The notes under the pieces are model-generated. The model searched no databases, was not told the origin of the DNA, and worked only from the letters and a program-made list of their open reading frames with translations. From the IMG/VR virus record IMGVR_UViG_3300036860_000563, positions 64,001-94,290 of that record: 30,290 nt of DNA; one strand, given 5' to 3'. The position numbers were made by a program, and so were the translations under genes. Below are positions 1 through 26,250 of this stretch, one piece after another. Source of the stretch: a virus (lineage: Duplodnaviria; Heunggongvirae; Uroviricota; Caudoviricetes). Numbering within the stretch: the first letter of the stretch is position 1; every line of letters begins with the position of its first letter.

Positions 1-606
1 GTCTCACCGAGCGCCGGCGTCGGAGCCGTCTCACTCACCGTCAACGGAGCGACGACTAAGTCCTCGCCGAGTGCCGGGGTGGCCCCCGTCGCGCTCACAG
101 TGAGTGGCGCCACCGCGACCGTGGCCGCACACGCCCAGAACGTTACGCTCGCGGTGGTCGGCCAGAGCGCGACACCGACGATCGCACCACACGCTGACTC
201 TGTGTCTGTGGTGTTCACCGCGCTCAACGCCACCGTCAACGCGTCCACACCTGGCACAGCGTTCGCCGATCTCGTAACGCTCACCCTGGTGGCCCAGCCG
301 GCCGCAACTACCGTCGTCACCAGCGGGGGAGTCACGGCCGTCACCGTCGCTGGACAACCGGCAACGGTGACGACGACTGTGACGAGCAGCGCCGGTGCCG
401 CGAGCGTCGCGCTGAGCGCGCAACCCGCCACCGTCGTCACACTCGTGAGCGCGAGTGCGAGTGTCGCTACAATGAGTGTGGCTGGGTTAGTCGCCACGGC
501 CCGAACCGTGGTGAACCCCGGTGTCGCACCACTCACTCTCGTCGCGCTCGGCGCCTCCGGTTCCACGGGTGGTGCGGGTCGTCAACGGTGGGGAATCTCA
601 CTGTGA
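1..606 (+). CDS. 5'-truncated Thr/Val/Ala/Ser-rich repetitive virion protein (decoration or fibre-like)
   Basis: Frame 1 is open from base 1 (VSPSAGVGAVSLTVNGATT...) to TGA 604-606. It has a recurring 'V.LT(V/L).(G/A)Q.AT' beta-strand-like pattern and lies just upstream of the head-tail genes. Confidence 0.55.
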   Translation, partial: VSPSAGVGAVSLTVNGATTKSSPSAGVAPVALTVSGATATVAAHAQNVTLAVVGQSATPTIAPHADSVSVVFTALNATVNASTPGTAFADLVTLTLVAQPAATTVVTSGGVTAVTVAGQPATVTTTVTSSAGAASVALSAQPATVVTLVSASASVATMSVAGLVATARTVVNPGVAPLTLVALGASGSTGGAGRQRWGISL

Positions 607-7375: not shown

Positions 7376-8866
7376 ATGTCATCACTCGTAGCAACACCCG
7401 ACCTCGACAACGCCGCCGTCGCCGTCGTCATCGACGACGTCTACGCGCGTGACACGTTCACTCGCACGGTCTCCAACGGGTGGGGCACCGCCGACACCGG
7501 ACAGACCTGGACGATCATTGAAGGCACCGCGGCCGACTTCGCCGTCAACGGCACACTGGGCACGATGACACACAGCGCGACGAACGCGTCGCACAGCATC
7601 ATCCTCCCCCCGAGCCGGGTGGACGTGGACGTTCGCATCAACGTAGAGCACAACATCGGGAGTGTGGCCGGTGGTAACTTAGTCGCCTTCTTCGACTTCC
7701 GGATGATCGACATCAACAACCTGTATCGGTTGTACGTTCGGTGGAAGCCGGCGGGCGTCGCCACCGTCGAGCTGATAAAGTTGATCGCAGGCACCTCTAC
7801 GACGATCGCCGGTGAGACGGTGATCCCCGGTGTCACCGCTACGAGCTCACTCACAGTTCGAGTGCGGGTGACTGGGACCGTCATCACCGGTGTGCGACTG
7901 TTGGCGAACGCGTGGCTCTCAACACAGCCCGAGCCAGCGTGGCTGTTGAGTGCCGTTGACTTCACCTTCGGCGCTCTCGGTGACCTTCGAGTCGCGTCGT
8001 TCCGCGACACCGGCAACACCAACAACCCAACTGTGTTTCGGTTCGACAACCTCACCGTGGCGATACCGGAGCCGGTGCACGTGTCACGGGTATACCCGAA
8101 CGCCACCGAGGCCGAGGTGCTCGGTTCACCGTTTTACACCTCGGGTGGTCTCGCCGTGCTGTGGGACACGGTCATGCCACTCGACGTACCGGTGTTCTAC
8201 GTGGCTCGCGCGGACGGCTCAACTGTGATCAGCCTAACGTCAAACACGGTCACTGTGACCGGGCAGGGCGACGGTTGGTTGAGAGATCCTGAGCAACCCA
8301 TCTACGACGTGCACCTCGTGGACTGCTCACGCAGTTGTCCCATCACCGTCTCACTAGGTGTCGTCAGCCGGCAGGCCGAGCTTCAGGCACTCGACCCAGC
8401 GGCGCTCAGCTCGGCCAATGGCACGTTCCCGATCATCGACGCGGCGCGCTCTCGGACGGTGTCACAGACGCGCAAGGCGAGAAGTCTCGCGCTTCACATA
8501 CTTACGATGACACTCGCACAGGAGCAAGGTGTTGTGAACGTGCTCGCGTCGGGCCGTGTGTTGTTCTTGCAACTTGCTCACCTCTACGGTTGGGCGTACG
8601 ACAACTGGGCGTCGGACTACGTCGACGTCGGAGACGTGGTGGACGCACGAGTGGGAACACAGAACATGCTCTTACCGCAGCGAACGTGGTCACTACCACT
8701 GAGACTCGCGCGAGCACCCACCGTCACGTCCGGTCACCTAGCCGGTAACGGGATCGGAGTGAGTGGCACCACGTACGGCGACGGCACGGCGTCCGGTCGC
8801 ACGTATCAAGATCGCATTAACCTACCCAACACGTACCTAGACACGTCGCTCGGGGTGGGTCTCTAG
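7376..8866 (+). CDS. Distal-tail (Dit)-like minor tail protein with inserted lectin-like domain
   Basis: The segment 'DTFTRTVSNGWGTADTGQTW' ... 'FRFDNLTV' (ConA-like) is followed by 'LWDTVMPLDVPVFY', 'DGWLRDP' and 'R...WSLPL', characteristic of actinophage Dit-like proteins. Confidence 0.55.
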   Translation: MSSLVATPDLDNAAVAVVIDDVYARDTFTRTVSNGWGTADTGQTWTIIEGTAADFAVNGTLGTMTHSATNASHSIILPPSRVDVDVRINVEHNIGSVAGGNLVAFFDFRMIDINNLYRLYVRWKPAGVATVELIKLIAGTSTTIAGETVIPGVTATSSLTVRVRVTGTVITGVRLLANAWLSTQPEPAWLLSAVDFTFGALGDLRVASFRDTGNTNNPTVFRFDNLTVAIPEPVHVSRVYPNATEAEVLGSPFYTSGGLAVLWDTVMPLDVPVFYVARADGSTVISLTSNTVTVTGQGDGWLRDPEQPIYDVHLVDCSRSCPITVSLGVVSRQAELQALDPAALSSANGTFPIIDAARSRTVSQTRKARSLALHILTMTLAQEQGVVNVLASGRVLFLQLAHLYGWAYDNWASDYVDVGDVVDARVGTQNMLLPQRTWSLPLRLARAPTVTSGHLAGNGIGVSGTTYGDGTASGRTYQDRINLPNTYLDTSLGVGL

Positions 8867-9942
8867 TGTGGCCCACGTCCCAGGCACTGCTCAACGCACT
8901 GATCACCGATCACGAGATGGACGTCACCGTCAACGTCATACGAGGTGAGCAATCACTCGGTCAGGTGCCGATCGTGGCGTGTAGCGTGGACGCGACACTA
9001 CTTACCCAAGATGGGCGCACCGCATCACTCGTCGTGGACCAAGGAGTGATCGACGACGGGTTGCTCGATCCGCTCTCGGACACCGTGGTTATTCGTACCG
9101 GTGTTTCCGACGTCGAACTGGTGCCGATCTTCACCGGCCGTGTCGACGCACACGCGGCCGGGAGCGACGGTGACGTCACCGTCGCGTGCGTCTCCCGTGC
9201 GGTTGAGCTGACGCGAGCTCGGTTTGAGACACCTATGTCGGCGCGACCCGGTGCACTCATCCGGGATGAGATTCAACGTCTCGTGCAGGACGTCGACCCG
9301 GCGTGGTCGGTGGACGTGAGTGTGGCGCGTCCTGACCGCGTACCAGACTCACTACTCTGGGAAGAAGATCGCAGTGGCGCCGTCGATGAGCTCGCTACGT
9401 CGCTCAACTGCATCTTAATGCCCAACCGCGTTGGTGGGTTCATACTCGTGCCGTCTCGCTTTGCGGAGGGCGCGAACGTCACACCGGTGGCGACACTCCG
9501 TGACGGCGAGAACGGGGTGCTCGTCAAGATCGACTCAGTTAAGTCACGGCGTGACATCGCCAACTCAGTCACAGTTGTCGTAGAGCGCACCGACGGAACG
9601 TCACCGATTCGCATCACGGTGCGAGACACCAACCCGGCCAGTCCGACGTTCTGGGGCGGTGTGTTTGGTAAGCAGAACGTCGTGCTCAAGCTCGACTCAC
9701 CGAGCTCGACGTTGGAGGCGAGTGTCATCGCATCACGGGTTCTACGACAGTCACTCGCCGTGGCACGGACGTGGCGCATCACGCTACCCCACTACCCGGT
9801 GCTCGACCCGGGTGACGTCATCGTCATCTGGCACCGTGGTGAACCGTTCACACAGGTTATCGAGTCGGTGCGGTACTCGGGAGGTGCGAGTGAACCCACG
9901 GTGCTCGCGGCGCGTGAGCTCATCGTCGCACCCACTCCCTAG
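8866..9942 (+). CDS. Baseplate hub / Tal-like minor tail protein (DUF5047-like)
   Basis: Starts 'MWPTSQALLNAL...H'; has 'PIFTGRV', 'LWEEDRSGAVDELATS', 'NSVTVVVE', 'FWGGVFG' and 'P.LDPGDVI'. The start overlaps the upstream stop by one base. Confidence 0.7.
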   Translation: MWPTSQALLNALITDHEMDVTVNVIRGEQSLGQVPIVACSVDATLLTQDGRTASLVVDQGVIDDGLLDPLSDTVVIRTGVSDVELVPIFTGRVDAHAAGSDGDVTVACVSRAVELTRARFETPMSARPGALIRDEIQRLVQDVDPAWSVDVSVARPDRVPDSLLWEEDRSGAVDELATSLNCILMPNRVGGFILVPSRFAEGANVTPVATLRDGENGVLVKIDSVKSRRDIANSVTVVVERTDGTSPIRITVRDTNPASPTFWGGVFGKQNVVLKLDSPSSTLEASVIASRVLRQSLAVARTWRITLPHYPVLDPGDVIVIWHRGEPFTQVIESVRYSGGASEPTVLAARELIVAPTP

Positions 9943-9960
9943 GTGATGAGGCAGCGGTGT

Positions 9961-9977
9961 GATGATGATGATGATGA
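9961..9977. repeat. (GAT)5 microsatellite in intergenic spacer
   Basis: gatgatgatgatgatga lies between the tail gene and the first glycosyltransferase. Confidence 0.85.
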
Positions 9978-10006: not shown

Positions 10007-10702
10007 GTGAGTGATCACACACAATCATACGCGATCGTGTTGACGCACAACAGACCGACGGAGCTGGCGTGGTGTGTTGCCGCACTCGTCGACCAGGTTG
10101 ATCACATCATCATCGTGGACAACGCGTCACAGCCGGCCGTCGTCACCGGTGATGTGACGTTTCTCGACCGGGTGAGAGCGTGGACGATCATTTGCGATGA
10201 GGAGCAACCACCTAACCTCGCGCGGCTGATGAACGTTGGTCTCGAGCGGGCGAGTGAGCTCGCCAAGGCGCGAGATCAAGGCACGTACGACGTGGCGATC
10301 GTCTGTGATGATGTGTTCGTGCCCTCCGGCTGGTTCGACGCGGTCGCGACGTGCGTGCGCGCGCACAACGTCGTCGCGGGCAGCACGCACCAGGTGACGC
10401 CCGTCACCCAGCCGATCGTTAAAACGGCACCGGACTCCGACATCCACAACCGAATGCAGGGTTCGGCGTTTGTGACACGTGGTGAGGTGGGCCTACGCGC
10501 CGACGAGCGCATGCACTGGTGGTGGCAGGACACGGACCTGGACTGGCAGGCTCGACTCACCGGCGGCATGGTCATCGCACCGGGACCCGTCGCGCTCAAC
10601 ACTCGTCCCAACGACTTCACGTACTCGGTGCCGGGACTCGCCGAGCGCGCGGGTGTCGACCAGAGAGAGTTTAAGGAGAAGTGGGGTTGGGTACCGTGGT
10701 AG
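10007..10702 (+). CDS. Glycosyltransferase, GT-A/GT2-like
   Basis: 'AIVLTHNRP..L..CVAAL..Q...IIIVDNAS', 'N.GL', 'IVCDDV' and 'WQDTDL' are GT2 motifs. Confidence 0.75.
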   Translation: MSDHTQSYAIVLTHNRPTELAWCVAALVDQVDHIIIVDNASQPAVVTGDVTFLDRVRAWTIICDEEQPPNLARLMNVGLERASELAKARDQGTYDVAIVCDDVFVPSGWFDAVATCVRAHNVVAGSTHQVTPVTQPIVKTAPDSDIHNRMQGSAFVTRGEVGLRADERMHWWWQDTDLDWQARLTGGMVIAPGPVALNTRPNDFTYSVPGLAERAGVDQREFKEKWGWVPW

Positions 10703-10758
10703 ACGTCAGACGCACCACGACGCGCACCACCTTCATTAGGAGCACCGAGACCGATCGT

Positions 10759-10899
10759 ATGACGGTCTTTCACCTTCGAGAGTTCATCAAGGCACTCGAT
10801 GACTCCGGCATACCTGATGACGTCTACGTGACATCACGCCGGGAGAACGCGCACCTCAGCACTCTCTCGGTTCAGTGGAACGAGGACCTCGAACCGTGA
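10759..10899 (+). CDS. Small hypothetical protein (alternative start GTG 10696)
   Basis: It fills the gap between two GT genes, and its stop overlaps the next GTG (GTGA). No family was recognised. Confidence 0.4.
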   Translation: MTVFHLREFIKALDDSGIPDDVYVTSRRENAHLSTLSVQWNEDLEP

Positions 10900-11525
10900 G
10901 CCGCGTCGCGTACGGTGTCTGCGTCGGCTCGTGGGATAAGTTCACGCGTAACGTCGTCCCGCGCGTCGGCGACCGACCGGTGTACGCCCTCGCCGGGCAC
11001 ACCAGCATCGCCGTCGCGTACAACCAGATCCTCCGCACCGTGTGTGACCGACACGCCCTCCCACCCGACGTGCTCGTCCTCCAACACGACGACCTAGAGA
11101 TCACCGATCCCGACGGGGAGGCAAAGCTTCTGACCGCCGTGTCGCAGCCGGGAGTCGCGCTCGCCGGGGTGGCCGGTGCCGCGACCTGTCCCACTCTCGC
11201 GTGGTGGAACACCGACCCGGTCGGGCACCAGGTTACCGATGTGATGAACATTGACTTCGGACAGCGAACCGGAGACGTGATCTTGCTCGAGGGCAGTGTC
11301 CTCGCGTTCTCGCCGTGGGCGATTGCCACTCTTCGGTTTGACGTCCGGTTCCCCGGGTTTCACGGTTACGATGAGATCGGTATGCAGGCCCACCATCACG
11401 GAAAGCGCAACGTCGTGGTGGACGTTGACACTCATCATCACACCGCGATGGGCTTCAAGACGACCGCCAGTCACGAGCAGTGGCTACACGCCGACCGACT
11501 CTTTCGAGAAAAGTGGAAGTTGTGA
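10896..11525 (+). CDS. Glycosyltransferase-like protein (GT-A, 'Glyco_tranf_2_5'-like)
   Basis: The start was re-called to GTG 10896 (GTGA overlap). Motifs 'SIAVAYN', 'LVLQHDDLEI', 'GVAGA', 'FDVRFPGFHGYD' and 'HH'. Confidence 0.72.
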   Translation: MSRVAYGVCVGSWDKFTRNVVPRVGDRPVYALAGHTSIAVAYNQILRTVCDRHALPPDVLVLQHDDLEITDPDGEAKLLTAVSQPGVALAGVAGAATCPTLAWWNTDPVGHQVTDVMNIDFGQRTGDVILLEGSVLAFSPWAIATLRFDVRFPGFHGYDEIGMQAHHHGKRNVVVDVDTHHHTAMGFKTTASHEQWLHADRLFREKWKL

Positions 11526-12736
11526 GACGAACGACGTGTAGCGCGTGTGGTTATGACGACCTGCGGACGTTCCTCGACCTAGGTTCCTCGCCCATCGCCG
11601 ACGCGTACACCAGCTCGCCCGATGAGCTGAGTGACGTGTACCCTCTGCAACTCGCCGTGTGCGCCGGTTGCTGGCTGGTGCAGCTCTTAGAGGTCGTCGA
11701 TCAAGAGACACTATTCGGCACCGGTTACTCGTTCTACTCGTCCGCGTCGGCGCCGCTGTCCAACTATCACGCCACGTACGCCGCGAGTGTTCTCGGGGGC
11801 TACGGTGACCTGGCGCAGCGGTTGACGGTGGAGGTCGGCTGCAACGACGGGGACATGCTTCGTCACTTTCAACGCGCCGGATGCCCCGTGGTGGGTGTGG
11901 ACCCGGCGAGCGGACCGGTCGGCGCCGCGCGCGAGCGTGGGCTCGACGTGCTCGACGTCGCGTTCACGCCTACGGTCGCCGGTGAGCTGCTGGAGGCGCG
12001 AGGTCCCGCCGGGTTGATCATTGCCAACCACGTACTCGCCCACGTCGAGGACGTCTCACACGTGCTCTCGGGCGTCAGCACCCTGCTGGCGGCCGACGGT
12101 GTGGCGTTCGTCGAGGTGCAGTACCTGCCCGACCTGCTCGTGAACAACGCGTTCGACCTGGTGTACCACGAGCACCGCAACTTCTTCTCACTCACCAGCC
12201 TGGAGTGCGCCGCGAGACGCTGGGGACTCTACGTCGCCGACTGGGAGCTCACCCAGCGGCAGGGAGGATCACTTCGTGTCACACTGTCGAAGCAGCGTCA
12301 GCGCACTAGTTCGTCACACACGATCACACGTGAACGTGAAGAGTGGTTGCGTCACACGAGTGCGTATGACGGTCTACAGGGACGAGTAGAGCGCGTTCGC
12401 ACTCGCTTACGTGACCTGCTGTTCGACGAGACGATGAACGGACGCTCAGTCGCGGGCTACGGCGCACCCGCCAAGGCGACGACCCTCCTCAACTTCTGTG
12501 GTATCGACCACCACACGATCGAGTTCATCACCGACACCACACCCGCGAAGTGTGAACGATACGTACCCGGCACCGGAATCCCCATCATGGCTCCGTCCGA
12601 CGCGTTGCGTCACGACGTCGACACGTTCATCATACTCGCGTGGAACTACGCGGCACAGATCATACGAAACAACGTGAAGTTCATGGACGACGGCGGACGC
12701 TGGATCATACCCATCCCGGCACCGGTGCTGCTGTGA
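11522..12736 (+). CDS. NDP-hexose C-methyltransferase (TcaB9/TylC3/EryBIII-like)
   Basis: The start was re-called to GTG 11522 (GTGA overlap). It has the N-terminal Zn site 'CSACG...LDLGSSP...YPL.LAVCAGCWLVQL', then 'VEVGCNDG', 'GVDPA', 'NHVLAHV', 'YHEH..FF', 'GYGAPAKATTLLN', 'GTGIPI' and 'LAWNY'. Confidence 0.9.
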   Translation: MRRTTCSACGYDDLRTFLDLGSSPIADAYTSSPDELSDVYPLQLAVCAGCWLVQLLEVVDQETLFGTGYSFYSSASAPLSNYHATYAASVLGGYGDLAQRLTVEVGCNDGDMLRHFQRAGCPVVGVDPASGPVGAARERGLDVLDVAFTPTVAGELLEARGPAGLIIANHVLAHVEDVSHVLSGVSTLLAADGVAFVEVQYLPDLLVNNAFDLVYHEHRNFFSLTSLECAARRWGLYVADWELTQRQGGSLRVTLSKQRQRTSSSHTITREREEWLRHTSAYDGLQGRVERVRTRLRDLLFDETMNGRSVAGYGAPAKATTLLNFCGIDHHTIEFITDTTPAKCERYVPGTGIPIMAPSDALRHDVDTFIILAWNYAAQIIRNNVKFMDDGGRWIIPIPAPVLL

Positions 12737-13305
12737 TGAGCTTACGCGGTGTTAACGTCGCACGAGAGGCCCATCACGTGAGAGTAAACTTGGGCTGCGG
12801 TGACCGGTACGCCGACGGTTGGCTCAACGTTGACCACGGCGGTTCACCACATCGTAAAGATCTAGAGGTGGACCTTCGCGCGCCGCTTCCGTGGCCACGA
12901 GACTCGATCGCGTACGCGTACGCCGGGCACCTGCTGGAGCACCTGCGCGTTCACGAGGTCGTGGTGTTTCTCGGACGCCTACGTTCGTGCATGCGTGATG
13001 ACGGTGTGCTCACCGTCGTCGGACCCGACCTGGACATCGCCGAGGGCATGGCCGCGGCGGGTACACTCGACGTAACGCTCGACTCACTCCGGTGCGGCGC
13101 CGACCGCTGGGTCGGTGATCGTCACCGCTGGGAGTGTAGCGCACCCGCTGTCGTCACGTTCTTGCGATTGACCGGCTGGGTAGACATACGTGAGTCGAAC
13201 GTTGATGAGCTGCCCGAGCTGTGGCCGGTGGCCGACCGAGGACCGCGGTGGCAGTGCGTCGTGCTCGCCACTCGCGGTTCCGATCCCCCGGGCGACGCCG
13301 CGTGA
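12736..13305 (+). CDS. Class I SAM-dependent methyltransferase (small-molecule/sugar type)
   Basis: The start was re-called to ATG 12736 (TGATG overlap). Motifs 'VNLGCG....GWLNVD', 'DL..PLPW...S....YAGHLLEHL'. Confidence 0.8.
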   Translation: MSLRGVNVAREAHHVRVNLGCGDRYADGWLNVDHGGSPHRKDLEVDLRAPLPWPRDSIAYAYAGHLLEHLRVHEVVVFLGRLRSCMRDDGVLTVVGPDLDIAEGMAAAGTLDVTLDSLRCGADRWVGDRHRWECSAPAVVTFLRLTGWVDIRESNVDELPELWPVADRGPRWQCVVLATRGSDPPGDAA

Positions 13306-13904
13306 TCGACATCACCGTGGCGATACCGACGATCGCACCTCGTGCCGCGCCGGGTGGGTTGTTAGAGCGAGCGCTACGAAGCGTAAGCGCCCAGACGTCA
13401 CCACCTAGTGGTGGAACGTCGTGTGCGCTCGACGTCGACAAGGTCGGCGCCGCTGGGACGCGACAGCGAGCGCTCGACGCGGTGCGCACCGAGTGGGTAG
13501 CCTTCTTAGATGATGACGACACGTGGTACCCGCACCACCTTAGTGCGCTCTCACAGCTCGCCGAAGACACCGGGGCCGCGTACTTATTCACGTGGTTTGA
13601 CGGCAACAACCCGTTTCCCGCACACCGTGGCCGGGCGTTCGACGTGACGCAACCTCATCACACCACGATGACGGTGATGGTAAAGACCGAGCTCGCGCGA
13701 GTCGCGGGCTTCATCCAACCGGACGGACCGATGCACCAGGACTGGGCCGGTGAGGACTGGCAGTTCACGCTACGCTGCGCGGCTGAGCTGGTGCGGCGGC
13801 ACGGGGTGACCGGGGCTAACGCACGCTTTGCCGGCACGGGTGACGTTACGTGGACGTACCACGTGCACGGCGGTAACACCAGTGGCCTACCGACGAGATG
13901 GTGA
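13302..13904 (+). CDS. Glycosyltransferase, GT2-like
   Basis: The start was re-called to GTG 13302 (GTGA overlap). Motifs 'ITVAIPTI', 'RALRSV.AQ', 'EWVAFLDDDD', 'EDW' and 'YHVHGGNTSG'. Confidence 0.82.
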   Translation: MIDITVAIPTIAPRAAPGGLLERALRSVSAQTSPPSGGTSCALDVDKVGAAGTRQRALDAVRTEWVAFLDDDDTWYPHHLSALSQLAEDTGAAYLFTWFDGNNPFPAHRGRAFDVTQPHHTTMTVMVKTELARVAGFIQPDGPMHQDWAGEDWQFTLRCAAELVRRHGVTGANARFAGTGDVTWTYHVHGGNTSGLPTRW

Positions 13905-14551
13905 GCGTGAGTGATGAGAGCACGAGTGACGAGAGCGCGAGTGACGAGAGCGTGAAGAGCTGCGCGTGCGACGTCACCGTCGTGATTCCACACATCCCCC
14001 CGCGTGCCGAGTGGTGTGCCCGTGCCGTGCGCTCGGCGCTGACGCAGACCCAGCGACCGAGTGAGATCATCATCGAGGTCGACGTTCATCACGAGGGTTC
14101 GGCGACGACGCGCAACCGGGCCCTAGAGCGAGTGTCGACGAGCTGGGTGGCGTTTCTCGACGACGATGACGAGCTGCTACCACCACACCTCGACGCGCTA
14201 CTCACTCACGCGTGCACCACTGGCGCGGACGTCATCTACCCGGGCTGCATCGTACTAGATCCCGCGGGGCGAGAGGTACCACGCCGCGACGAGTGGGGTC
14301 GGTTCGGACGAGAGTTCGACGCGGAGCTGCTGCGTAAGCGATCGTACGTTCCGGTGACGTCACTCGCTCGTACGTCACTCGCGCGGCTGGCGGGCTTCGG
14401 CGCGCCGACGGGCTCGAACTACGATGACTGGGGCTTCTACCTGCGCATGCTCGACCTAGGCGCGATGTTCTCACACCTGCCCGAGATCACATGGTACTGG
14501 CATCATCACGGAAAAAATTCTAGCGGACAGCCTGGAAAAGGTGATGCTTAG
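13898..14551 (+). CDS. Glycosyltransferase, GT2-like (paralog of upstream gene)
   Basis: Motifs 'VTVVIPHIP', 'TRNRAL', 'WVAFLDDDD', 'YDDW' and 'WHHHGKNSSG'. Confidence 0.85.
   Translation: MVSVSDESTSDESASDESVKSCACDVTVVIPHIPPRAEWCARAVRSALTQTQRPSEIIIEVDVHHEGSATTRNRALERVSTSWVAFLDDDDELLPPHLDALLTHACTTGADVIYPGCIVLDPAGREVPRRDEWGRFGREFDAELLRKRSYVPVTSLARTSLARLAGFGAPTGSNYDDWGFYLRMLDLGAMFSHLPEITWYWHHHGKNSSGQPGKGDA
13909..13953 (+). repeat. 3 x 15-bp imperfect tandem repeat encoding SDES(T/A/V)
   Basis: gagtgatgagagcac / gagtgacgagagcgc / gagtgacgagagcgt. Confidence 0.85.
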
Positions 14552-14562
14552 TATCACTTTAC

Positions 14563-14568
14563 TATAAT
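14563..14568 (+). promoter_or_regulatory. Candidate -10 element (TATAAT) for leaderless HNH transcript
   Basis: A perfect TATAAT lies 6 nt before ATG 14575, with no SD between them. No consensus -35 was seen. Confidence 0.5.
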
Positions 14569-14574
14569 ACATTC

Positions 14575-15057
14575 ATGACACATGTGCGACGTCCGGTAGA
14601 TGAGAGATTTTGGGAAAAAGTTGAAAAAACTGACACTTGCTGGCTATGGCGTGCGGGACCACACAAAGATAATTTAAGCATTCCCGGTGTGTTTCAACTA
14701 GGTCGAGATGGTGGTACAATCTTAGCGTCACATTATGTATGGATGAGCGTAGGAAACTTACGTCCACAATTTAATCATGGTGAAATGATTTGTCACACAT
14801 GTGACGTGTCAAAGTGTGTAAGACCTGATCACTTATATCTCGGAACAAATAACACTAATATGCGTGATATGTCGCAAAGATGTCGATCACGCGGGCACAA
14901 AATAACACACTGTCCGCAAGGTCATTCATATGATGAATATGGATTCATTAGCAGCGGTGGTTCACGAAGATGTAAGATTTGCTCAAGAAGAATAAAGCAT
15001 GAAAGTTACCTACGAAAAAAGATGAAAAGTCAACTAGAGCGGGGTGATCGCTGGTGA
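14575..15057 (+). CDS. Free-standing HNH homing endonuclease
   Basis: Motifs 'RFWEKVEKTDTCWLW', 'ICHTCDVSKCVRPDHLYLGTNNTNMRDM' and 'THCPQGH...RRCKIC'. It is visibly more A+T-rich than its neighbours. Confidence 0.85.
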   Translation: MTHVRRPVDERFWEKVEKTDTCWLWRAGPHKDNLSIPGVFQLGRDGGTILASHYVWMSVGNLRPQFNHGEMICHTCDVSKCVRPDHLYLGTNNTNMRDMSQRCRSRGHKITHCPQGHSYDEYGFISSGGSRRCKICSRRIKHESYLRKKMKSQLERGDRW

Positions 15058-15061
15058 GTGA

Positions 15062-16129
15062 GTGAAGGTCTACGTCTACCCAGCGGATGAGACGGGCTGT
15101 GGTTACTACCGGCTGATCTGGCCCGCGCGAGCGCTGCGTGAACGTGGACACGACGTCGTCGTCGTCATGCCGCGTGACCGCGGTGACAGCATCCAGGGTG
15201 TGATCCGTGGTGACCAGCTCGTCGACGTGCACCACCCACCGGACGCCGACGTCATGGTGCTGCAGCGCGTTACACATCGTCACATAGTCGAGGGCGTTAA
15301 GATCCTAAGAGATAAGGGCGTCACCGTCGTCGTGGACATCGATGATGACCTGGCCACCATTCACCCGACGAACCCAGCGTTCATCGCGATGCACCCGCAA
15401 CACGGGCGCACCGGTGATCACAGCTGGCAGAACACCCAGCGGGCCTGTGAGAACGCCACACACGTAACCGTGTCCACCAGCGCGCTGCTAACGCGCTACG
15501 CCTCACACGGACGCAGCACGGTACTGCGCAACTGCGTTCCCGCTCGGTACCTGAGCGTCCCGCACACCGACTCAACGGTGATCGGCTGGGGTGGCTCCAC
15601 GCACTCTCATCCAGATGATCTGCAGATGATGGGAACCGCGATCACGCAGCTCACTCGTGACGGTCACACGTTTCGCGTCGTCGGGCCACTCGCGGGCGTT
15701 CGGTCGGCACTTCACTTAGACGCTGAGCCGAGCTTCACCGGGTCCGTGGATCTGCTCTCGGCCTGGCCCGAGACGCTGGGTCAGCTCGGGATCGGGGTCG
15801 CACCACTCGCGGACAGCCGGTTCAACGAGAGTAAGAGTCACCTTAAACCGCTGGAGCTGGCGGCGCTCGGAGTGCCCTGCGTGATGTCTCCCCGGGCGGA
15901 GTACCGGAGACTCCACGAGCTCGGTGTTGGACTACTGGCCGAACGGCCCCGCGAGTGGCTACGCGTGCTACGCCGCCTGGTTGGGAGCGCTGAGCTACGC
16001 TCCGAGCTGTCCGAACGGGGCCGAGACGTCGCGCGTGAGTGGACCATCGAGGGCAACGCCGAGCGCTGGCTCGCCGCGTGGTCGACGGCGTACGAACGAT
16101 CGTCATTGTCACCGTTAGATCGTCCATGA
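15062..16129 (+). CDS. Glycosyltransferase, GT-B (GT4-like)
   Basis: Motifs 'GCGYYRL.WP..AL...GHDV', 'VVVDIDDDL', 'VTVST..L', 'IGWGGS..H' and 'IGVAPL....FNESKSHLKPLELAALGVPCVMS'. Confidence 0.8.
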   Translation: MKVYVYPADETGCGYYRLIWPARALRERGHDVVVVMPRDRGDSIQGVIRGDQLVDVHHPPDADVMVLQRVTHRHIVEGVKILRDKGVTVVVDIDDDLATIHPTNPAFIAMHPQHGRTGDHSWQNTQRACENATHVTVSTSALLTRYASHGRSTVLRNCVPARYLSVPHTDSTVIGWGGSTHSHPDDLQMMGTAITQLTRDGHTFRVVGPLAGVRSALHLDAEPSFTGSVDLLSAWPETLGQLGIGVAPLADSRFNESKSHLKPLELAALGVPCVMSPRAEYRRLHELGVGLLAERPREWLRVLRRLVGSAELRSELSERGRDVAREWTIEGNAERWLAAWSTAYERSSLSPLDRP

Positions 16130-16435
16130 GACGCCGCACGCCTCACAGACCTCATGATGTGGAGATAACCGCATCACCGTGAAACTCTCACACCCCGGAC
16201 ACTTAACACGGTGACGTGGTGTTCTGATCTTGTATCGCTGACGCTCCGTTAGGCCACCCCAGACGCCGTACTTCTCGGGAAGTGTGAGCGCGTGGTGCAG
16301 GCAGTCCAGCCGGATCGGACACGGTGTTAAGCAGATCGTCACCGCGTCATCCTCGAGAGCGGGTTCAAAGAACAGGTCGCGATCACGTCCTTGGCACGCT
16401 GCCCGCGACCAGTCTACGATGCGAGTGTGCGTCAC
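16115..16435 (-). CDS. whiB: WhiB-family Fe-S transcription factor with C-terminal Zn-ribbon-like extension
   Basis: 'W..RAAC....LFF....A..IC...CPIR..CL..AL......GVWGGLTERQR' followed by CxxC...CxxC. Confidence 0.9.
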   Translation of the reverse strand: MTHTRIVDWSRAACQGRDRDLFFEPALEDDAVTICLTPCPIRLDCLHHALTLPEKYGVWGGLTERQRYKIRTPRHRVKCPGCESFTVMRLSPHHEVCEACGVSWTI

Positions 16436-22219: not shown

Positions 22220-22755
22220 ATCTTTGAATCACCGTTCAGCGAGTTGACGACGTCAAGCTCGAGCGGATGTGAGCACGGGCCGCACCACGCACCGACGAGT
22301 ACACCACTGAGCGATGACCGGGTCTTGATGACGTTGACGTCGTCGAGGGCGCGGCCACAGCCCGGGCACTTCGTCGAGTGACCGTCATAACCGTGACGCT
22401 GCCGAGCGACGTTAGCAGCGCGCTTCGCGTAGTACGTGTCGACGAACCTCACCGCGAGCTCGTCGGCTGTGTCACCTGGGTACGCCGCCCACGCGACGTT
22501 CATGATGAAGTGCCACGCGTCCACGAGCTCGTGAAGTAACCGGTCCGAGTGAACCGCACGCTCACCGATCGTCCACGACTTCCACGTCGTCTCGTCGAGC
22601 GCCTCGTGCAGCTCGTGAACCGCGGCGAGCACCATCTCTTTCACGTACGAGACGCGCTGATCGATCGTCATACTCGCAAACTCGTAGCCGAGTGTGTTTT
22701 CCTGCAGCTCCCGCTGGGCGGCCAACATCTCGGTGAGCTCACCAGGCCAAGGCAC
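22216..22755 (-). CDS. All-alpha dimeric dUTPase/MazG-like NTP pyrophosphatase with C-terminal CxxC..CxxC (alternative start 22773)
   Basis: 'ML..QRELQ', 'ELHEALDETTWKSW', 'ELVDAWHF' and 'Y.AK...N.ARQ..GY', followed by CPGC...CGPC. Confidence 0.8.
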   Translation of the reverse strand: MPWPGELTEMLAAQRELQENTLGYEFASMTIDQRVSYVKEMVLAAVHELHEALDETTWKSWTIGERAVHSDRLLHELVDAWHFIMNVAWAAYPGDTADELAVRFVDTYYAKRAANVARQRHGYDGHSTKCPGCGRALDDVNVIKTRSSLSGVLVGAWCGPCSHPLELDVVNSLNGDSKI

Positions 22756-23686
22756 GACGCACGCCCTTCTCAATCGAGATCTTCGCGGTGTGAAGCTCGT
22801 TCATGATCGTCGGGTCACCAACGCGGTGGGTTACACCCAGTGGTTGATCGGGGTCGACGAGCGTCACCGGCGCGTAGTCGACCTCCCGCTGGACGAGCAG
22901 TGCGAGGTCAAGTAGTGACGTACCGACCCCGGTGCACAGGTTGACCGGGCGACACTCATCGGCGTCGACGACCGCGAGCGCACCGTTCACCAGGTCAGAG
23001 ACGTGAATAAAGTCACGGGTCTGGTCAGCGCGTCCCCAGATCGTAAACGGATCTTCACGTCGGCGCGCTCGCTCCACGAACGCGCGAAACGGAAAGTTCT
23101 CCGACTGATCCTCACCGTAGCCGGAGAACGGTCGTACGATGTGAACCGGTAACCCGTTCCGCTGGGCGATGACCGCCTGCAACTCACCTACGTACTTCGT
23201 CCACCCGTACGTCCGGTCGGGCACCCGCACCGGTGAGTCATCGAGCGCGTCGGCGAGGTCGACGTACGCGTCAACCTCATGCAGCCTGGTGTCGATGAAC
23301 TCGTCGGTCTGCAGCGCCACCGGGTAGATCGCCGATGACGAGACGTAGAGTAGTCGCCGCTGGTGTGTGTACATCGCCCAGGAGAAGATCGCCGCGTCCA
23401 GTGCGACGTTGTATGAGAAGTTAGCGTTCACGGCGTCGATCGCGGCCCGGTGCGGCTCGCGTGCGGCGCAGTGAACGACGAGATCGAACACGGTGCTGGT
23501 GTTTACACGGCAGAAGTTGTGAGCATCCTGCATCACGTGAATTCGACTCACGTGGTTGGGAAACCAAGAAACGTCAACCCGTTCGAGGTCCACCGAGGTG
23601 ACGAACCAACCACGACGCTCTAGCTCGTCACTAAAGTGTCGACCGAGGAAACCGGCACCACCGGTAACGAGTGCGGTCTTAGTCAT
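22739..23686 (-). CDS. NAD-dependent NDP-sugar epimerase/dehydratase (extended SDR)
   Basis: The start was re-called to ATG 23686. Motifs 'ALVTGGAGFLG', 'VVHCAA', 'YVSSSAIY', 'YGWTK', 'RPFSGYG' and 'QTRDFIHVSD'. Confidence 0.9.
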   Translation of the reverse strand: MTKTALVTGGAGFLGRHFSDELERRGWFVTSVDLERVDVSWFPNHVSRIHVMQDAHNFCRVNTSTVFDLVVHCAAREPHRAAIDAVNANFSYNVALDAAIFSWAMYTHQRRLLYVSSSAIYPVALQTDEFIDTRLHEVDAYVDLADALDDSPVRVPDRTYGWTKYVGELQAVIAQRNGLPVHIVRPFSGYGEDQSENFPFRAFVERARRREDPFTIWGRADQTRDFIHVSDLVNGALAVVDADECRPVNLCTGVGTSLLDLALLVQREVDYAPVTLVDPDQPLGVTHRVGDPTIMNELHTAKISIEKGVRRALAW

Positions 23687-23687
23687 G

Positions 23688-24749
23688 TCACAGAGCTCCC
23701 AGCGCCTGCAGGTCGGTGAGCCACGCCTCAAAGCCGTCACGCGTCTGATCGGGAAGCCACGGGAGTTCGTCCAGCGCCGAGTAGCACCGGGTGATGAAGT
23801 CACCGAGCTCGGCGCTGGACCAGTCCTCATTCGTACTTTCATCACCGAACGTGACGTCACGCAGGACAGCGCAGAGTTCCTCGGTGTGACGCATACCGAA
23901 CAGCTCCGCGTCGAGGTCCGCGAAGATGTCGTGCTCGTTGCGCGTCTGCGTCACGAGAGGCTCACCGTACCACACGAGGTAACCCAGGTGGTCCATGACG
24001 CACCGCGCGAGGTACGATGCCCAGACGTCGTCATAGCGACCAACTCCCGGCCAGACCATCATCAACGGCGCGAGTTCCGCCCGGTACGCGACGGCCTGTG
24101 AGTTGAACGGCGCCCACGTGCCGGGTGCCAGTGCGGCACCCGGGTGCCAGTGCGACGACATGCGGTCGGTGGCTACACGACCGAGCGCGAGACGCGTCGC
24201 CGCGTCGACGTCCGGGTCACCACGCCACAGGGACGCGTGTACCCCGACCGGCAGAGCGTCGTGCACCTCGGTGAACACGTGAATCTCATCTCGCTGGGTG
24301 ATGGGAAAACCTCGGTGAAACGTCGAGGCGCCGAACATCACCAGCGGGTTGAACCAGCCCGACGAGCTGTCGATGATCACCGTCGCGTCGGTGGTGGCCT
24401 CCGACAGCGCTCGGTGAACCATCCCCCACTGGTCGGCCTCATCCGGCCAGTTGTCGTCGTCCACCGTCATGATCCACTCGGGTTTGAGCGCGATCGCCTC
24501 GAGCAGCGCGACGTTACGCCGCTGAACCGAGTTCCACCCGACGGCCTCACTCGTCTTCCACCCAAGCTGCGCGCTGGGCGCGAGGTAGCGGTTGTCGCCG
24601 GGCAGCTCGGCGAGCAGGTCGGTGACGGCCTCGTGCGGTGTGTTGCGGTCACCGGCGACGATGATGACGTCATCATCCATCATACCCGCCGCGCGCCACA
24701 TGCGTAGGTTCTTAGGAACGTTGATCGTGGTTGTGATGAGAGCGCGCAC
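23688..24749 (-). CDS. RGP/STELLO-like (GT75-related) nucleotide-sugar mutase or glycosyltransferase
   Basis: The start was re-called to GTG 24749 (AGGAG 8 nt upstream). Motifs 'ITTTIN', 'VAGDRNTP', 'RRNVALLEA', 'TVDDDN', 'RGFP', 'LWRGDPDVDA..RL', 'PFNSQ', 'GRYDDVW' and 'Q.RNEH...DL..E'. Confidence 0.75.
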   Translation of the reverse strand: MRALITTTINVPKNLRMWRAAGMMDDDVIIVAGDRNTPHEAVTDLLAELPGDNRYLAPSAQLGWKTSEAVGWNSVQRRNVALLEAIALKPEWIMTVDDDNWPDEADQWGMVHRALSEATTDATVIIDSSSGWFNPLVMFGASTFHRGFPITQRDEIHVFTEVHDALPVGVHASLWRGDPDVDAATRLALGRVATDRMSSHWHPGAALAPGTWAPFNSQAVAYRAELAPLMMVWPGVGRYDDVWASYLARCVMDHLGYLVWYGEPLVTQTRNEHDIFADLDAELFGMRHTEELCAVLRDVTFGDESTNEDWSSAELGDFITRCYSALDELPWLPDQTRDGFEAWLTDLQALGAL

Positions 24750-24760
24750 GTGCGTGGCTC

Positions 24761-24919
24761 CTAGTCGTAGAGAGTGTGATCGAGTATGATGAGACCGACA
24801 CCGATGACGATCGCGATGAGTGCGAGATACCACCTGTCCGGAGCGAAGCAGAGCATGCCGCCACCGCCGGCGATGAACACGCCACCTACGGCGTTAAGGT
24901 CTATGACGTCACGGGCCAC
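24761..24919 (-). CDS. Small 52-aa membrane protein (not in ORF track)
   Basis: GTG 24919 has GAGGAG upstream and TAG at 24761-24763. It reads VARDVIDLNAVGGVFIAGGGGMLCFAPDRWYLALIAIVIGVGLIILDHTLYD and exactly fills the gap between two operon genes. Confidence 0.5.
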   Translation of the reverse strand: MARDVIDLNAVGGVFIAGGGGMLCFAPDRWYLALIAIVIGVGLIILDHTLYD

Positions 24920-26250
24920 ACTCGCTCCTCGATGAGTCGTACGTAGCGTAGCTCGGTGAGTGCGTTGCCAAAGTGAACGCGCTGCGCACGCACCAAGTGA
25001 AGCCAGTCGTGACGACCGGCGTCGGAGTTGAGGTGAGTAACGCGCCGGTGTAGATCACCCGGTGAGTCGGCGCGAAGCCAGTCGCGAAGGTACGGCGCAG
25101 CGTCGCCGAGAACGTTGTTCTGCGTGTCGTAGAGCGGGTGAAAGAAGCACACCGTACCGGCCGCGAACGCCTCCCAGGGCTTCGCGGTGGCCCAGCCGGA
25201 GCCGCTGGACGGCGTCGTGAACGTGGACCGTACAGAGTGAAGTAGTGGGTAGTACTCAGCCCAGGGTGCCGGCGTGATCCGTCGGTTGAGGTGCGTCTGT
25301 GACACGTCGGACCACGTGCCGTGAACCCACTTAGGTGCGAGTGGCAGCACCCAGTCACGTACGATGTCTCTCCGACGCGTCGCGTCGGACGTGCGTGGTG
25401 ACGCCTCGTTGATGAACATGCCGAAGCTGTCCCGGTGATCCCACTCTTCGTCGTACGAGATGAGATCACCGAACGGTGTCCCGGGCAGCAGGCCGTTGAC
25501 CTCGAGGCGTGAGTACACGTTGTGCACCGTCGAGCGCCACACCGTGGCGTCGTCGTGAGCGTCCCAGAGCGGCTCCACCTCGTTCTTCGTCTCACGTTCC
25601 CAGTCACTCCAGCCGCCCGTGTCATCGTAGCGCTCGTGCTTGAGCGGGTGGTGAAACGTGAACTGGGTGAGCACCGGGTGCCGAAGTGGCCACTTTAGGT
25701 CTCGCATCTTGTGACGGTTGCGAGAGTCCGCGTTGAGGTAGACCTCCTCACGCTTCCACGGGTCGACGTCACGCCACAGGTTGACGCCCCGGAAGAGGTA
25801 CGAGCAGTAGTAGGCACACCAGTCGTAGGGCTTGGTGAGCTGGTCTCGGTCGTCGACTCGTGGTATCGGTGTGTTCGTCGTGCCGTGCTGACCCACCCAG
25901 AGTATGATCGCGTCGAGGTCGAGGATCGTCGGTAGTGTGAGTGCGTCGAAGATGTCCTGCAGTGAGAGCTGCTCCACGGACGACAGGTTGGCGTGATTGA
26001 GCTGTGCGTCATTGATCTCACGTCGTAGCCGGGGTGCCCACTCGATCCACGGGTTCTCGACGTTGTCGGGTAACCCGACGTCGGTGGGCCGCGAGCCGTC
26101 GTTGCGACCGATGAGCACGAAGGTGTCAGCTGGGTGTCGCTGGGCGAGTGTCTTTACGACCGCGGCCATCTCCACGTCACCGCCGAGCGTTCCACAGCGT
26201 CCCAGTGATAGGGGCATCGACCGGCCGATCTTTCCATACCCGACTCTCAA
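24901..26250 (-). CDS. T4 beta-glucosyltransferase-like (GT-B) DNA glycosyltransferase
   Basis: By-eye colinear match to T4 BGT recalled from memory: GGDVEM~PSSETI, YLNADSRN~YLFTDIRL, YSRLEVNGL~YFPIEQYKI, TAKPWEAFAAG..FFHPLYDTQNNV~TLRVWETMASD..LIDEEFDTKHRI, SPGDLHRRVTHL~NRAELIDRVNEL. Confidence 0.75.
   Translation of the reverse strand: MRVGYGKIGRSMPLSLGRCGTLGGDVEMAAVVKTLAQRHPADTFVLIGRNDGSRPTDVGLPDNVENPWIEWAPRLRREINDAQLNHANLSSVEQLSLQDIFDALTLPTILDLDAIILWVGQHGTTNTPIPRVDDRDQLTKPYDWCAYYCSYLFRGVNLWRDVDPWKREEVYLNADSRNRHKMRDLKWPLRHPVLTQFTFHHPLKHERYDDTGGWSDWERETKNEVEPLWDAHDDATVWRSTVHNVYSRLEVNGLLPGTPFGDLISYDEEWDHRDSFGMFINEASPRTSDATRRRDIVRDWVLPLAPKWVHGTWSDVSQTHLNRRITPAPWAEYYPLLHSVRSTFTTPSSGSGWATAKPWEAFAAGTVCFFHPLYDTQNNVLGDAAPYLRDWLRADSPGDLHRRVTHLNSDAGRHDWLHLVRAQRVHFGNALTELRYVRLIEERVWPVTS

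Follow-up and report, generated by a model that had tools for sequence, protein, structure and literature searches.

A seven-enzyme glycosyltransferase and methyltransferase cassette in the virion operon of an uncultured actinophage, a candidate locus for glycosylation of particle proteins

According to the work of Freeman et al. (2023, Cell Host Microbe 31:1216) as relayed in PMC12363180 and PMC13313380, mycobacteriophage capsid and tail-tube subunits are glycosylated by phage glycosyltransferases (GTs) encoded in or near the virion genes. The cases of virion glycosylation described there and in PMC4351075 include Che8 gp108-110, Corndog gp35-38 and Myrna. No statement on glycans was found in the Jabs preprint.

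The locus analysed here belongs to an uncultured phage genome of 94 kb, rated 100% complete by CheckV, whose host is a high-GC actinobacterium; the window is a stretch of 30,290 nucleotides of that genome. The original prediction placed four GT-A genes, one GT-B gene, a C-methyltransferase gene and a second SAM methyltransferase gene on the virion strand right behind the tail and baseplate genes. Our analysis located all seven enzyme genes on the + strand between positions 10007 and 16129, directly behind a tail gene that ends at 9942; besides the five glycosyltransferases they encode a sugar C-methyltransferase and a class I SAM methyltransferase of small size. The inventory of seven enzymes was thus correct, but an HNH gene between F and G and an ORF of 72 codons between A and B had been overlooked. 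The features of the locus are the following:

8866-9942, + strand: last tail gene before the cassette, 358 aa, phrog_1887 tail protein
10007-10702, + strand: gene A, small GT-A glycosyltransferase, 231 aa (AF2 fold, invariant DD at 101-102)
10681-10899, + strand: small ORF between A and B, at most 72 codons, unique to this phage, weak phrog_20777 match
10896-11525, + strand: gene B, small GT-A of the majastridin/Glyco_tranf_2_5 type, 209 aa (AF2 fold, motifs)
11522-12736, + strand: gene C, predicted NDP-4-keto-sugar C3-methyltransferase of the TcaB9/TylC3/MtmC family, 404 aa (full-length homology)
12736-13305, + strand: gene D, small class I SAM methyltransferase, 189 aa (motif I, homologs)
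13302-13904, + strand: gene E, GT2 (GT-A) glycosyltransferase (FLDDDD motif, phrog_14775)
13898-14551, + strand: gene F, GT2 (GT-A) glycosyltransferase, paralog of E (phrog_14775)
14575-15057, + strand: HNH homing endonuclease gene between F and G, GC 42%
15062-16129, + strand: gene G, predicted GT-B glycosyltransferase, CgeB/Glyco_trans_1_2-like, 355 aa (phrog_7162, E 1e-38)
16115-16435, - strand: WhiB gene, convergent with G, their 3' ends overlapping by 15 nt

The cassette shares with Che8 and Corndog the presence of soluble GT-A enzymes together with a methyltransferase within or beside an actinophage virion operon, and the product proposed in both cases is an O-glycan on structural proteins. 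As predicted, it is more elaborate than the known examples, with five GTs versus three in Che8 and an O-methyltransferase plus three GTs in Corndog. It further differs from both in its TcaB9-type C3-methyltransferase, an enzyme type associated with branched-chain sugars, and in its hypervariability. E and F resembled the N-terminal GT2 domain of Che8 gp108 at the superfamily level only (HMM E 1e-10 to 1e-12), BLAST and HMM searches revealed no similarity to Che8 gp109, gp110 or Corndog gp35-38, and hhalign against Che8 gp110 gave probabilities of 6% for A and 0.1% for B. By sequence comparison, homology between the cassette enzymes and the proven mycobacteriophage enzymes does not reach the family level.

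The genes 5' of the cassette code for a tape measure, a Dit-like, a Tal-like and finally the 358-aa tail protein, which is separated from gene A by a 64-nt spacer containing (GATGAT)n; no terminator-like element was seen between them. That most genes are joined by GTGA or TGATG overlaps could be read directly in the sequence: start/stop overlaps link genes B through F, with GTGA at B/C and D/E, TGATG at C/D and ATGGTGA at E/F, and the stop of the small ORF likewise overlaps the start of B (GTGA). The starts in the ORF list (first ATG/GTG) were too far upstream for B, C, D and E; the N-terminal 23 residues of F (SDES repeats) may be untranslated, and the small ORF possibly comprises 46 codons if started at ATG 10759. 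The HNH gene, with a GC content of 42% against approximately 63-65% around it and an AT-rich leader carrying TATAAT, is a mobile insertion outside the sugar pathway. In relatives, the WhiB gene marks the cassette's fixed right border. No membrane-spanning segment was found in any cassette protein (Kyte-Doolittle, 19-residue windows, none above ~1.7), and the proteins are therefore predicted to be soluble. The gene position suggests that the cassette is expressed late.

Pfam matches of A to GT2 (E 9e-4) and of B to Glyco_tranf_2_5 were weak. The AF2 models (pLDDT 93 for A and 94 for B) showed a GT-A fold, with Foldseek probability 1.00 against GT-A structures for both; the top PDB matches of A were ppGalNAc-T2, AvpGT and heparosan synthase, and the best match of B was majastridin (2nxv, E 3e-11). 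A is a distant paralog of B. Residues D101 and D102, a DxD-type acidic motif, are invariant in the A family, and the motifs HDD (H71, D72, D73) and DTHHH are invariant in B. Both families were mostly viral in the ESM Atlas, and no homologs of B were found in deposited phage genomes. E and F each exceeded the PF00535 (GT2) cut-off and are paralogs, 37% identical and both containing FLDDDD. G scored barely above the cut-off of PF13524 (25.7 bits, cut-off 25) and 26.6 bits against PF13692 (cut-off 27); no PDB sequence match was found for it, and it shared 39% identity with gp165 of Arthrobacter phage Atuin and 30% with KimJongPhill gp6.

Analysis of gene C revealed the Pfam domains Methyltransf_13/23/14 and end-to-end matches to TcaB9, MtmC and KijD1 (E ~1e-77). 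The N-terminal four-Cys zinc-binding domain (PF08421, E 2e-17) carries two CxxC pairs that both align with TcaB9, the SAM motif VEVGCNDG aligns to VEIGCNDG of TcaB9, and the C-terminal PF08484 domain was detected with E 4e-44. Equivalents of TcaB9 H181, Y222, E224 and H225 are retained, YHEH aligning to YDEH and the His in NHVLAHV corresponding to H181; the TcaB9 numbering was fixed by the E224Q mutant chain 4e2y. C thus resembles TcaB9/TylC3/MtmC/KijD1 (PDB 3ndi, 4rv9, 5t64) in full-length alignment, Zn-ribbon Cys, SAM motif and Tyr/Glu/His residues, and its predicted activity is most likely that of a C3-methyltransferase for an NDP-4-keto sugar. Gene D has no Pfam match itself and, as a profile, gave only marginal methyltransferase matches against PDB; it carries motif I as LNLGCGD, shares 33% identity with gp5 of Streptomyces phage KimJongPhill, a protein annotated as a methyltransferase, and 4 of 16 of its homologs match Methyltransf_11. 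D is likely a sugar O-methyltransferase.

The TcaB9-type enzymes of known structure belong to antibiotic pathways, where their substrates are dTDP-2,6-dideoxy or 3-amino sugars; unlike these pathways, the cassette contains no 2,3-dehydratase or aminotransferase genes. Another parallel in gene content is the GDP-virenose route of Coxiella burnetii LPS, an in silico proposal in which the GDP-mannose 4,6-dehydratase Gmd, the TylC3-like CBU_0691 and a reductase yield a 3-C-methyl-6-deoxyhexose for a surface glycan (PMC3539893). That route and the sister-lineage loci described below both pair Gmd with a TylC3-type C3-methyltransferase, although the Coxiella route is a bacterial LPS pathway with export machinery and the present phage has no Gmd of its own.

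The cassette was found in at least 48 IMG/VR contigs, in every case within the virion operon. Homologs of C (53-66% identity) occurred in 48 contigs, together with A in 37, B in 40, E/F in 40 and G in 21, and all seven gene kinds were present together in 13 of the 48. Since the same genes recur in the same order in dozens of contigs, the arrangement is not due to chance. The association with virion genes was upheld by this survey, the cassette lying in the tail or head operons of two backbones unrelated to each other. In the first, the order is tape measure, tail genes, cassette and WhiB, while in the second it is portal, protease, capsid (phrog_10), cassette with Gmd, head-tail adaptor, tail terminator, a CgeB-like GT-B, whose profile gave no PDB match, and major tail. 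In 15 loci the Gmd homolog (PDB 1rpn, E 2e-46) stood directly behind C. Twelve further relatives, anchored on DUF932, all retained G and E/F at the same site, with B, C and D replaced by other methyltransferases, an SDR and a TOD1-like GT; the retention of E/F and G with exchange of the tailoring genes indicates that the locus is hypervariable. Searches of the cassette DNA against 50,697 deposited phages gave no match in near or distant modes, and in Microbacterium phage Leaf, whose backbone is the closest among cultured relatives, the virion region contains no GT genes. Among deposited phages, homologs of D, E/F and G (30-42% identity) were confined to the Streptomyces phages Zuko and KimJongPhill (Zukovirus) and the Arthrobacter phage Atuin group; these lack a B homolog and a close C homolog, the best deposited phage match to C being 31% identical. 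Of these homologs in cultured phages only KimJongPhill gp4-6, a UDP-glucose dehydrogenase, a D-like methyltransferase and a G-like GT, adjoin a virion gene, being located directly before the terminase gene.

With confidence a little better than even, we favour the reading that the seven enzymes put a branched, methylated hetero-oligosaccharide on proteins of the phage particle. Enzyme identities, coupling, conservation, virion-operon position and independence from the DNA-modification genes were observed; the acceptor, the sequence of the reactions, the nucleotide carrier and D's role we infer as follows. The cassette would act as one late, translationally coupled extension of the operon, and the glycan would be made in the cytoplasm of the infected cell. 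C would methylate C3 of an NDP-4-keto-6-deoxyhexose to give a branched-chain 6-deoxy sugar. The Gmd neighbouring C in the sister lineage points to a GDP-6-deoxyhexose; the substrate would most likely be GDP-4-keto-6-deoxymannose, supplied by a host dehydratase in this phage and by the phage's own GDP-mannose 4,6-dehydratase in the second lineage. Initiation of the chain at a structural protein's Ser/Thr would fall to either A or B, both small GT-A enzymes of the phage type, and its extension to E, F and G, while D may O-methylate or cap it. No 4-ketoreductase was found in the cassette, so the encoded sugar pathway is incomplete and needs the host or a bifunctional C. The SDR gene on the other arm of the genome was considered as the missing 4-ketoreductase and rejected as a general partner, being absent in five cassette genomes and present in relatives without C. 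The locus would be O-antigen-like, with E/F and G as a fixed core and tailoring genes exchanged between relatives, and we propose that the glycan therefore differs from phage to phage.

The original prediction spoke of a methylated, branched virion glycan. As far as the enzymes are concerned, branching and methylation have a good basis, since the catalytic residues of TcaB9 are retained in C; the genomic context in two unrelated backbones suggests that the acceptor may be a virion protein. No Ser/Thr extension specific to the cassette was found at the capsid and major-tail C-termini, where O-glycans would be expected in a system of the Che8/Corndog type. The Thr/Pro-rich C-end of the major tail protein (ITT..APP..C) is shared by its cultured homologs in Ashertheman, Ariadne and BayC and is therefore not a cassette-specific tag. 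Upstream of the cassette this phage encodes an S/T/A-rich protein of 641 aa, which is absent in the closest cassette-bearing relatives. The block coding for a 160-aa protein and this 641-aa protein was rejected as an obligate acceptor module, as it is missing in three genomes with the full cassette (G006, G010 and G009). Members of the 160-aa family were also seen in some 20 contigs that lack a cassette GT within 10 kb of them. Neither protein has a Pfam family or a homolog in deposited phages, and Tandem Repeats Finder detected no DNA-level repeat in the 641-aa gene.

That the enzymes glycosylate another soluble target, such as a non-virion phage protein, a host protein during takeover, a small molecule or a free oligosaccharide, is in our opinion unlikely. 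C-type methyltransferases are best known from antibiotic deoxysugar pathways, PHROGs files the cassette GTs under 'moron, auxiliary metabolic gene and host takeover', and some homologs have non-structural surroundings, Atuin gp165/169/170 lying near RNA ligase and Mre11 and KimJongPhill gp107-109 on the right arm outside the structural operon. Genes for aglycone formation, export or resistance are, however, absent nearby, a set of five GTs implies that a polymer is built on an acceptor macromolecule, and the placement within head or tail gene blocks is repeated on two unrelated backbones.

We regard it as distinctly improbable that the target is a glycan of the host envelope (arabinogalactan/linker, teichoic-acid-like polymer, glycolipid or S-layer glycan), modified by the cassette enzymes from the cytoplasmic side, and we think just as little of the corollary that the receptor would be masked so that progeny or competing phages no longer adsorb to infected cells or debris. 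The hypervariable cassette does adjoin the most variable tail (receptor-binding) genes, as expected if it tracked receptor chemistry, the GT-A matches include the cell-wall polymer enzymes TarS, RmlT, GlfT2 and heparosan synthase, and weak NCBIfam matches are to polysaccharide GTs. Yet the cassette codes for no membrane protein, flippase, polyprenyl-phosphate GT or GT-C, and its coupling to late tail genes would place it at a time when wall synthesis hardly alters the cell surface. The site between capsid and connector genes, before the major tail gene, in the second backbone is a poor one for a host-conversion module, and lysogenic conversion, as in surface glycosylation of the Gtr/TarP type, is unlikely since no tyrosine or serine integrase was found in the whole genome (PF00589 and PF00239 searched).

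The other arm carries a gene for a 449-aa BGT-like protein with RGP-like and SDR genes, and the predicted separation of the cassette from this sugar cluster was supported, the SDR/RGP-like/449-aa module being conserved in relatives without C in the late cassette. It is very improbable that the cassette extends or diversifies sugars on phage hydroxymethylcytosine DNA together with these glucosyltransferase-like genes, as the cassette lies in the late virion operon whereas the genes for DNA modification are grouped with those for replication on the other arm, PF00303 (ThyA-type hydroxymethylase, expected in T4-type hmC DNA glycosylation) is absent in 8 of 9 cassette genomes (5 of those at least 90% complete), SDR and RGP are absent from all five near-complete cassette genomes, of which two have the 449-aa gene, and we know of no case of branched C-methyl sugars or O-methylation on DNA. 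The cassette is not tied to hmC or other DNA-modification genes.

Returning to glycosylation of particle proteins, we suggest more tentatively, and with considerable doubt, that soil actinophages carry in their virion operons a horizontally exchanged, hypervariable O-antigen-like locus which here would place a chain containing a 3-C-methyl branched 6-deoxyhexose on particle proteins, possibly with the 641-aa protein among them, and that the gene swapping is driven by diversifying selection for escape from host recognition or for tuning of adsorption. To our knowledge, phage virion glycosylation has so far been demonstrated only for a few mycobacteriophages with three-GT sets, and we know of no virus with a 3-C-methyl branched 6-deoxyhexose. 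We are also aware of no glycan test on virions of Zukovirus or the Atuin group; these phages are in culture, which makes the virion-glycan idea directly testable. If it is true, particle glycans would be far commoner among soil actinophages and phage glycans chemically richer, including branched C-methyl and O-methyl sugars, and phage glycan loci would be swappable and organised like bacterial O-antigen clusters. This would be relevant to how phage and host recognise each other, to the antigenicity of actinophages used in therapy and to where rare-sugar enzymes may be sourced.

The window forms the final 30,290 nt of a 94,290-nt IMG/VR contig that is complete according to CheckV. The GC content is ~63% and a WhiB gene is present, so the phage probably infects an actinobacterium. 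Its capsid belongs to the Rosebush / 'major capsid hexamer' type, and the nearest cultured relative, from Microbacterium phage Leaf, is only 30% identical; glycosyltransferases (GTs) are absent from the Leaf virion region, and DNA searches with the cassette gave no match among deposited phages. On the + strand 5' of the cassette are found genes for a head-tail adaptor, a tail completion protein, a chaperone pair, the tape measure, a Dit-like protein, a Tal-like protein and a 358-aa tail protein. The last of these stops at 9942, and the 64-nt spacer separating it from gene A harbors a (GATGAT)n microsatellite at 9955-9975. The original prediction had placed five GTs and two methyltransferases after the tail genes; coordinates, domain, fold and PHROG evidence confirmed this arrangement, and two further genes that had been overlooked, an HNH gene and a small ORF, were identified.

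Genes of the cassette region (window coordinates, strand, assignment)
10007-10702, +, gene A: GT-A glycosyltransferase; weak Pfam match, supported by the predicted fold
10681-10899, +, small ORF of 72 codons between A and B; weak phrog_20777 match
10896-11525, +, gene B: GT-A glycosyltransferase; weak Pfam match, supported by the predicted fold
11522-12736, +, gene C: predicted NDP-sugar C3-methyltransferase; end-to-end alignment with TcaB9, MtmC and KijD1, E about 1e-77
12736-13305, +, gene D: small class I SAM methyltransferase; LNLGCGD motif I, no Pfam match to D itself
13302-13904, +, gene E: GT2 (GT-A), exceeding the Pfam cut-off; FLDDDD motif
13898-14551, +, gene F: GT2 (GT-A), exceeding the Pfam cut-off; FLDDDD motif
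14575-15057, +, HNH homing endonuclease between F and G
15062-16129, +, gene G: probable GT-B; phrog_7162 (E 1e-38), PF13524 barely over the cut-off

The AF2 model of gene A (15 homologs, pLDDT 93) gave ppGalNAc-T2, AvpGT, heparosan synthase and TarS as best PDB matches, while the model of gene B (21 homologs, pLDDT 94) gave majastridin 2nxv on top (E 3e-11), followed by ppGalNAc-Ts and STIV A197. A and B are distant paralogs (hhalign 80%) with acidic pairs invariant in each, and E and F are paralogs with 37% identity. Gene C retains the zinc-ribbon cysteines, the SAM motif and the equivalents of H181/Y222/E224/H225. Methyltransf_11 was matched by 4 of 16 gene D homologs, and D showed 33% identity to methyltransferase gp5 of Streptomyces phage KimJongPhill. 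The predicted overlap junctions were seen in the sequence as GTGA at 10896, 11522 and 13302 and as TGATG at 12736, with ATGGTGA at 13898. The annotated 5' end of gene F (13898-13966) would encode MVSVSDESTSDESASDES, a putative short acidic Ser-rich repeat that precedes the conserved GT2 start CDVTVVIP. The enzymology of the cassette is solid and points to soluble enzymes that build a hetero-oligosaccharide with branches and methyl groups.

The HNH gene has a GC content of 42%, against about 64% in its neighbours, and an AT-rich leader with TATAAT; it is clearly a mobile insertion. HNH-like matches were also present inside the cassettes of two related loci, L017 and L029, which argues for repeated invasion of the locus. 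No counterpart of the 72-codon ORF was found in the relatives, where A and B adjoin or overlap.

An IMG/VR search with gene C recovered 48 contigs, many of them incomplete, with C identities of 53-66%. A was present in 37 of these, B in 40, E/F in 40, D in 18 and G in 21, and all seven gene kinds occurred in 13, with the order kept. Clustering of the neighbouring genes and annotation of representatives revealed two unrelated backbones. In Group 1, to which the window belongs, the cassette stands behind the tape measure and three tail genes, and convergent WhiB and DUF932 genes come after it. In Group 2, portal, protease, phrog_10 capsid and small genes precede A-B-C, a 321-aa SDR gene, E/F and a few genes of unknown function; next come the genes for the head-tail adaptor, the tail terminator, a CgeB-like GT-B and the major tail protein. 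The survey for tail-gene synteny proposed in the original prediction thus found the cassette in the virion gene blocks of both backbones, and since the same enzymes occur on two unrelated backbones, they were placed within such blocks at least twice.

The CgeB-like GT-B (PF13524; Atlas score 0.99 to PF13524 clusters) lies apart from the main cassette, in the tail terminator/major tail interval, at L016:17375-18418 and in 11 other Group 2 loci. The SDR of Group 2 is homologous to GDP-mannose 4,6-dehydratase (Gmd; 1rpn, E 2e-46); paired with C, it mirrors the Gmd and TylC3-type combination proposed as a route to the 3-C-methyl sugar virenose (PMC3539893). Two contigs additionally carry another SDR and a 2OG-Fe(II) oxygenase of the prolyl-hydroxylase family (PF13640, E 1e-13) adjoining GT genes (L009:6972-7781 and L011), a position which hints that the sugar acceptors could be hydroxylated protein residues.

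The enzymes and their virion-operon context on two backbones favor the predicted virion glycan, and we lean towards virion proteins as the acceptor of the cassette. Against this, no cassette-specific Ser/Thr tail that might serve as an acceptor tag was found at the C-termini of the capsid and major tail proteins; cultured homologs of the major tail protein share its Thr/Pro-rich end. Between its major tail and adaptor genes the window phage carries an additional 7.5 kb (genome 57.1-64.6 kb), a block of eight genes that include those for 739-, 266-, 160- and 641-aa proteins, and neither a Pfam family nor a homolog in deposited phages was found for the block proteins. The 641-aa gene is the last of the block (L007:7681-9606, its C-terminal end being window 1-606), and the last ~430 residues of its product are S/T/A/V-rich quasi-repeats. 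The 160-aa protein encoded directly before it (L007:7155-7637) shares 79% identity with a Group 2 protein, and its family (L007 and loci L084-L116) shows 63-83% identity across different phage backbones. The gene after the 160-aa gene has a conserved N-terminus, MPLF.PD..Y.R.RRR, and a hypervariable C-half, which is richer in S/T/A at loci with cassette GTs no more than 10 kb away (18 loci; one-sided Mann-Whitney p = 0.0013, uncorrected for relatedness). Since the closest relatives G006, G010 and G009 lack the block but have a complete cassette, and the 160-aa family is widespread without cassette GTs nearby, the 641-aa protein is at most one candidate acceptor in the window phage.

Comparison with the mycobacteriophage virion-glycosylation proteins Che8 gp108-110 and Corndog gp35-38 revealed that only E/F matched the N-terminal GT2 domain of Che8 gp108, at the superfamily level, while A and B did not match Che8 gp110. 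The cassette may work like the Che8/Corndog system, to which it is not homologous. Among deposited phages, homologs of D, E/F and G were found only in Zukovirus (Zuko, KimJongPhill) and the Arthrobacter phage Atuin group; no gene B homolog was found, and the best match of gene C was 31% identical. KimJongPhill carries a trio of UDP-glucose dehydrogenase, D-like methyltransferase and G-like GT immediately 5' of terminase and a second trio, GT-methyltransferase-GT, on its non-structural right arm, while the Atuin homologs are located among RNA-repair genes. This mixed context is the chief argument against a purely virion role.

Another soluble acceptor seems rather unlikely, and action on the host envelope, which had been put forward as an alternative, is somewhat more doubtful. 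In all seven enzymes, hydrophobic segments strong enough to span a membrane are lacking, the cassette carries no flippase, polyprenyl-phosphate transferase or GT-C, its genes are coupled to late genes, and the genome yielded neither a tyrosine nor a serine integrase. These findings are compatible with cytoplasmic action on lipid-linked precursors but make lysogenic conversion by the cassette unlikely.

It is highly improbable that phage DNA is the acceptor of the cassette sugars: the other arm of the genome does carry an SDR, an RGP-like gene and a 449-aa BGT-like gene, but PF00303 is absent in eight of nine cassette genomes (five of the eight at least 90% complete), five near-complete cassette genomes lack both the SDR and the RGP-like gene, only two of these five have the 449-aa gene, and the SDR/RGP/449-aa/dUTPase/C5-MTase-like block is kept in relatives with a late cassette without C. 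G006 and G010 are without the SDR and RGP-like genes and retain the 449-aa gene. The module (22739-26250, -; SDR, RGP-like, 449-aa BGT-like, dUTPase_2, C5-MTase-like) is conserved in 10 of 12 further relatives recovered with the DUF932 gene as anchor. This distribution supports the predicted separation of the late cassette from the other-arm sugar cluster; it did not support the other-arm SDR as the missing ketoreductase for C.

All DUF932-anchored relatives covering the cassette site keep G and E/F beside WhiB, while B/C/D are replaced by a TOD1/MUCI70-like GT, an SDR, Methyltransf_24 or two Methyltransf_23 genes. The locus therefore combines a fixed core in a fixed position with exchangeable tailoring genes, and in this it resembles bacterial O-antigen loci.
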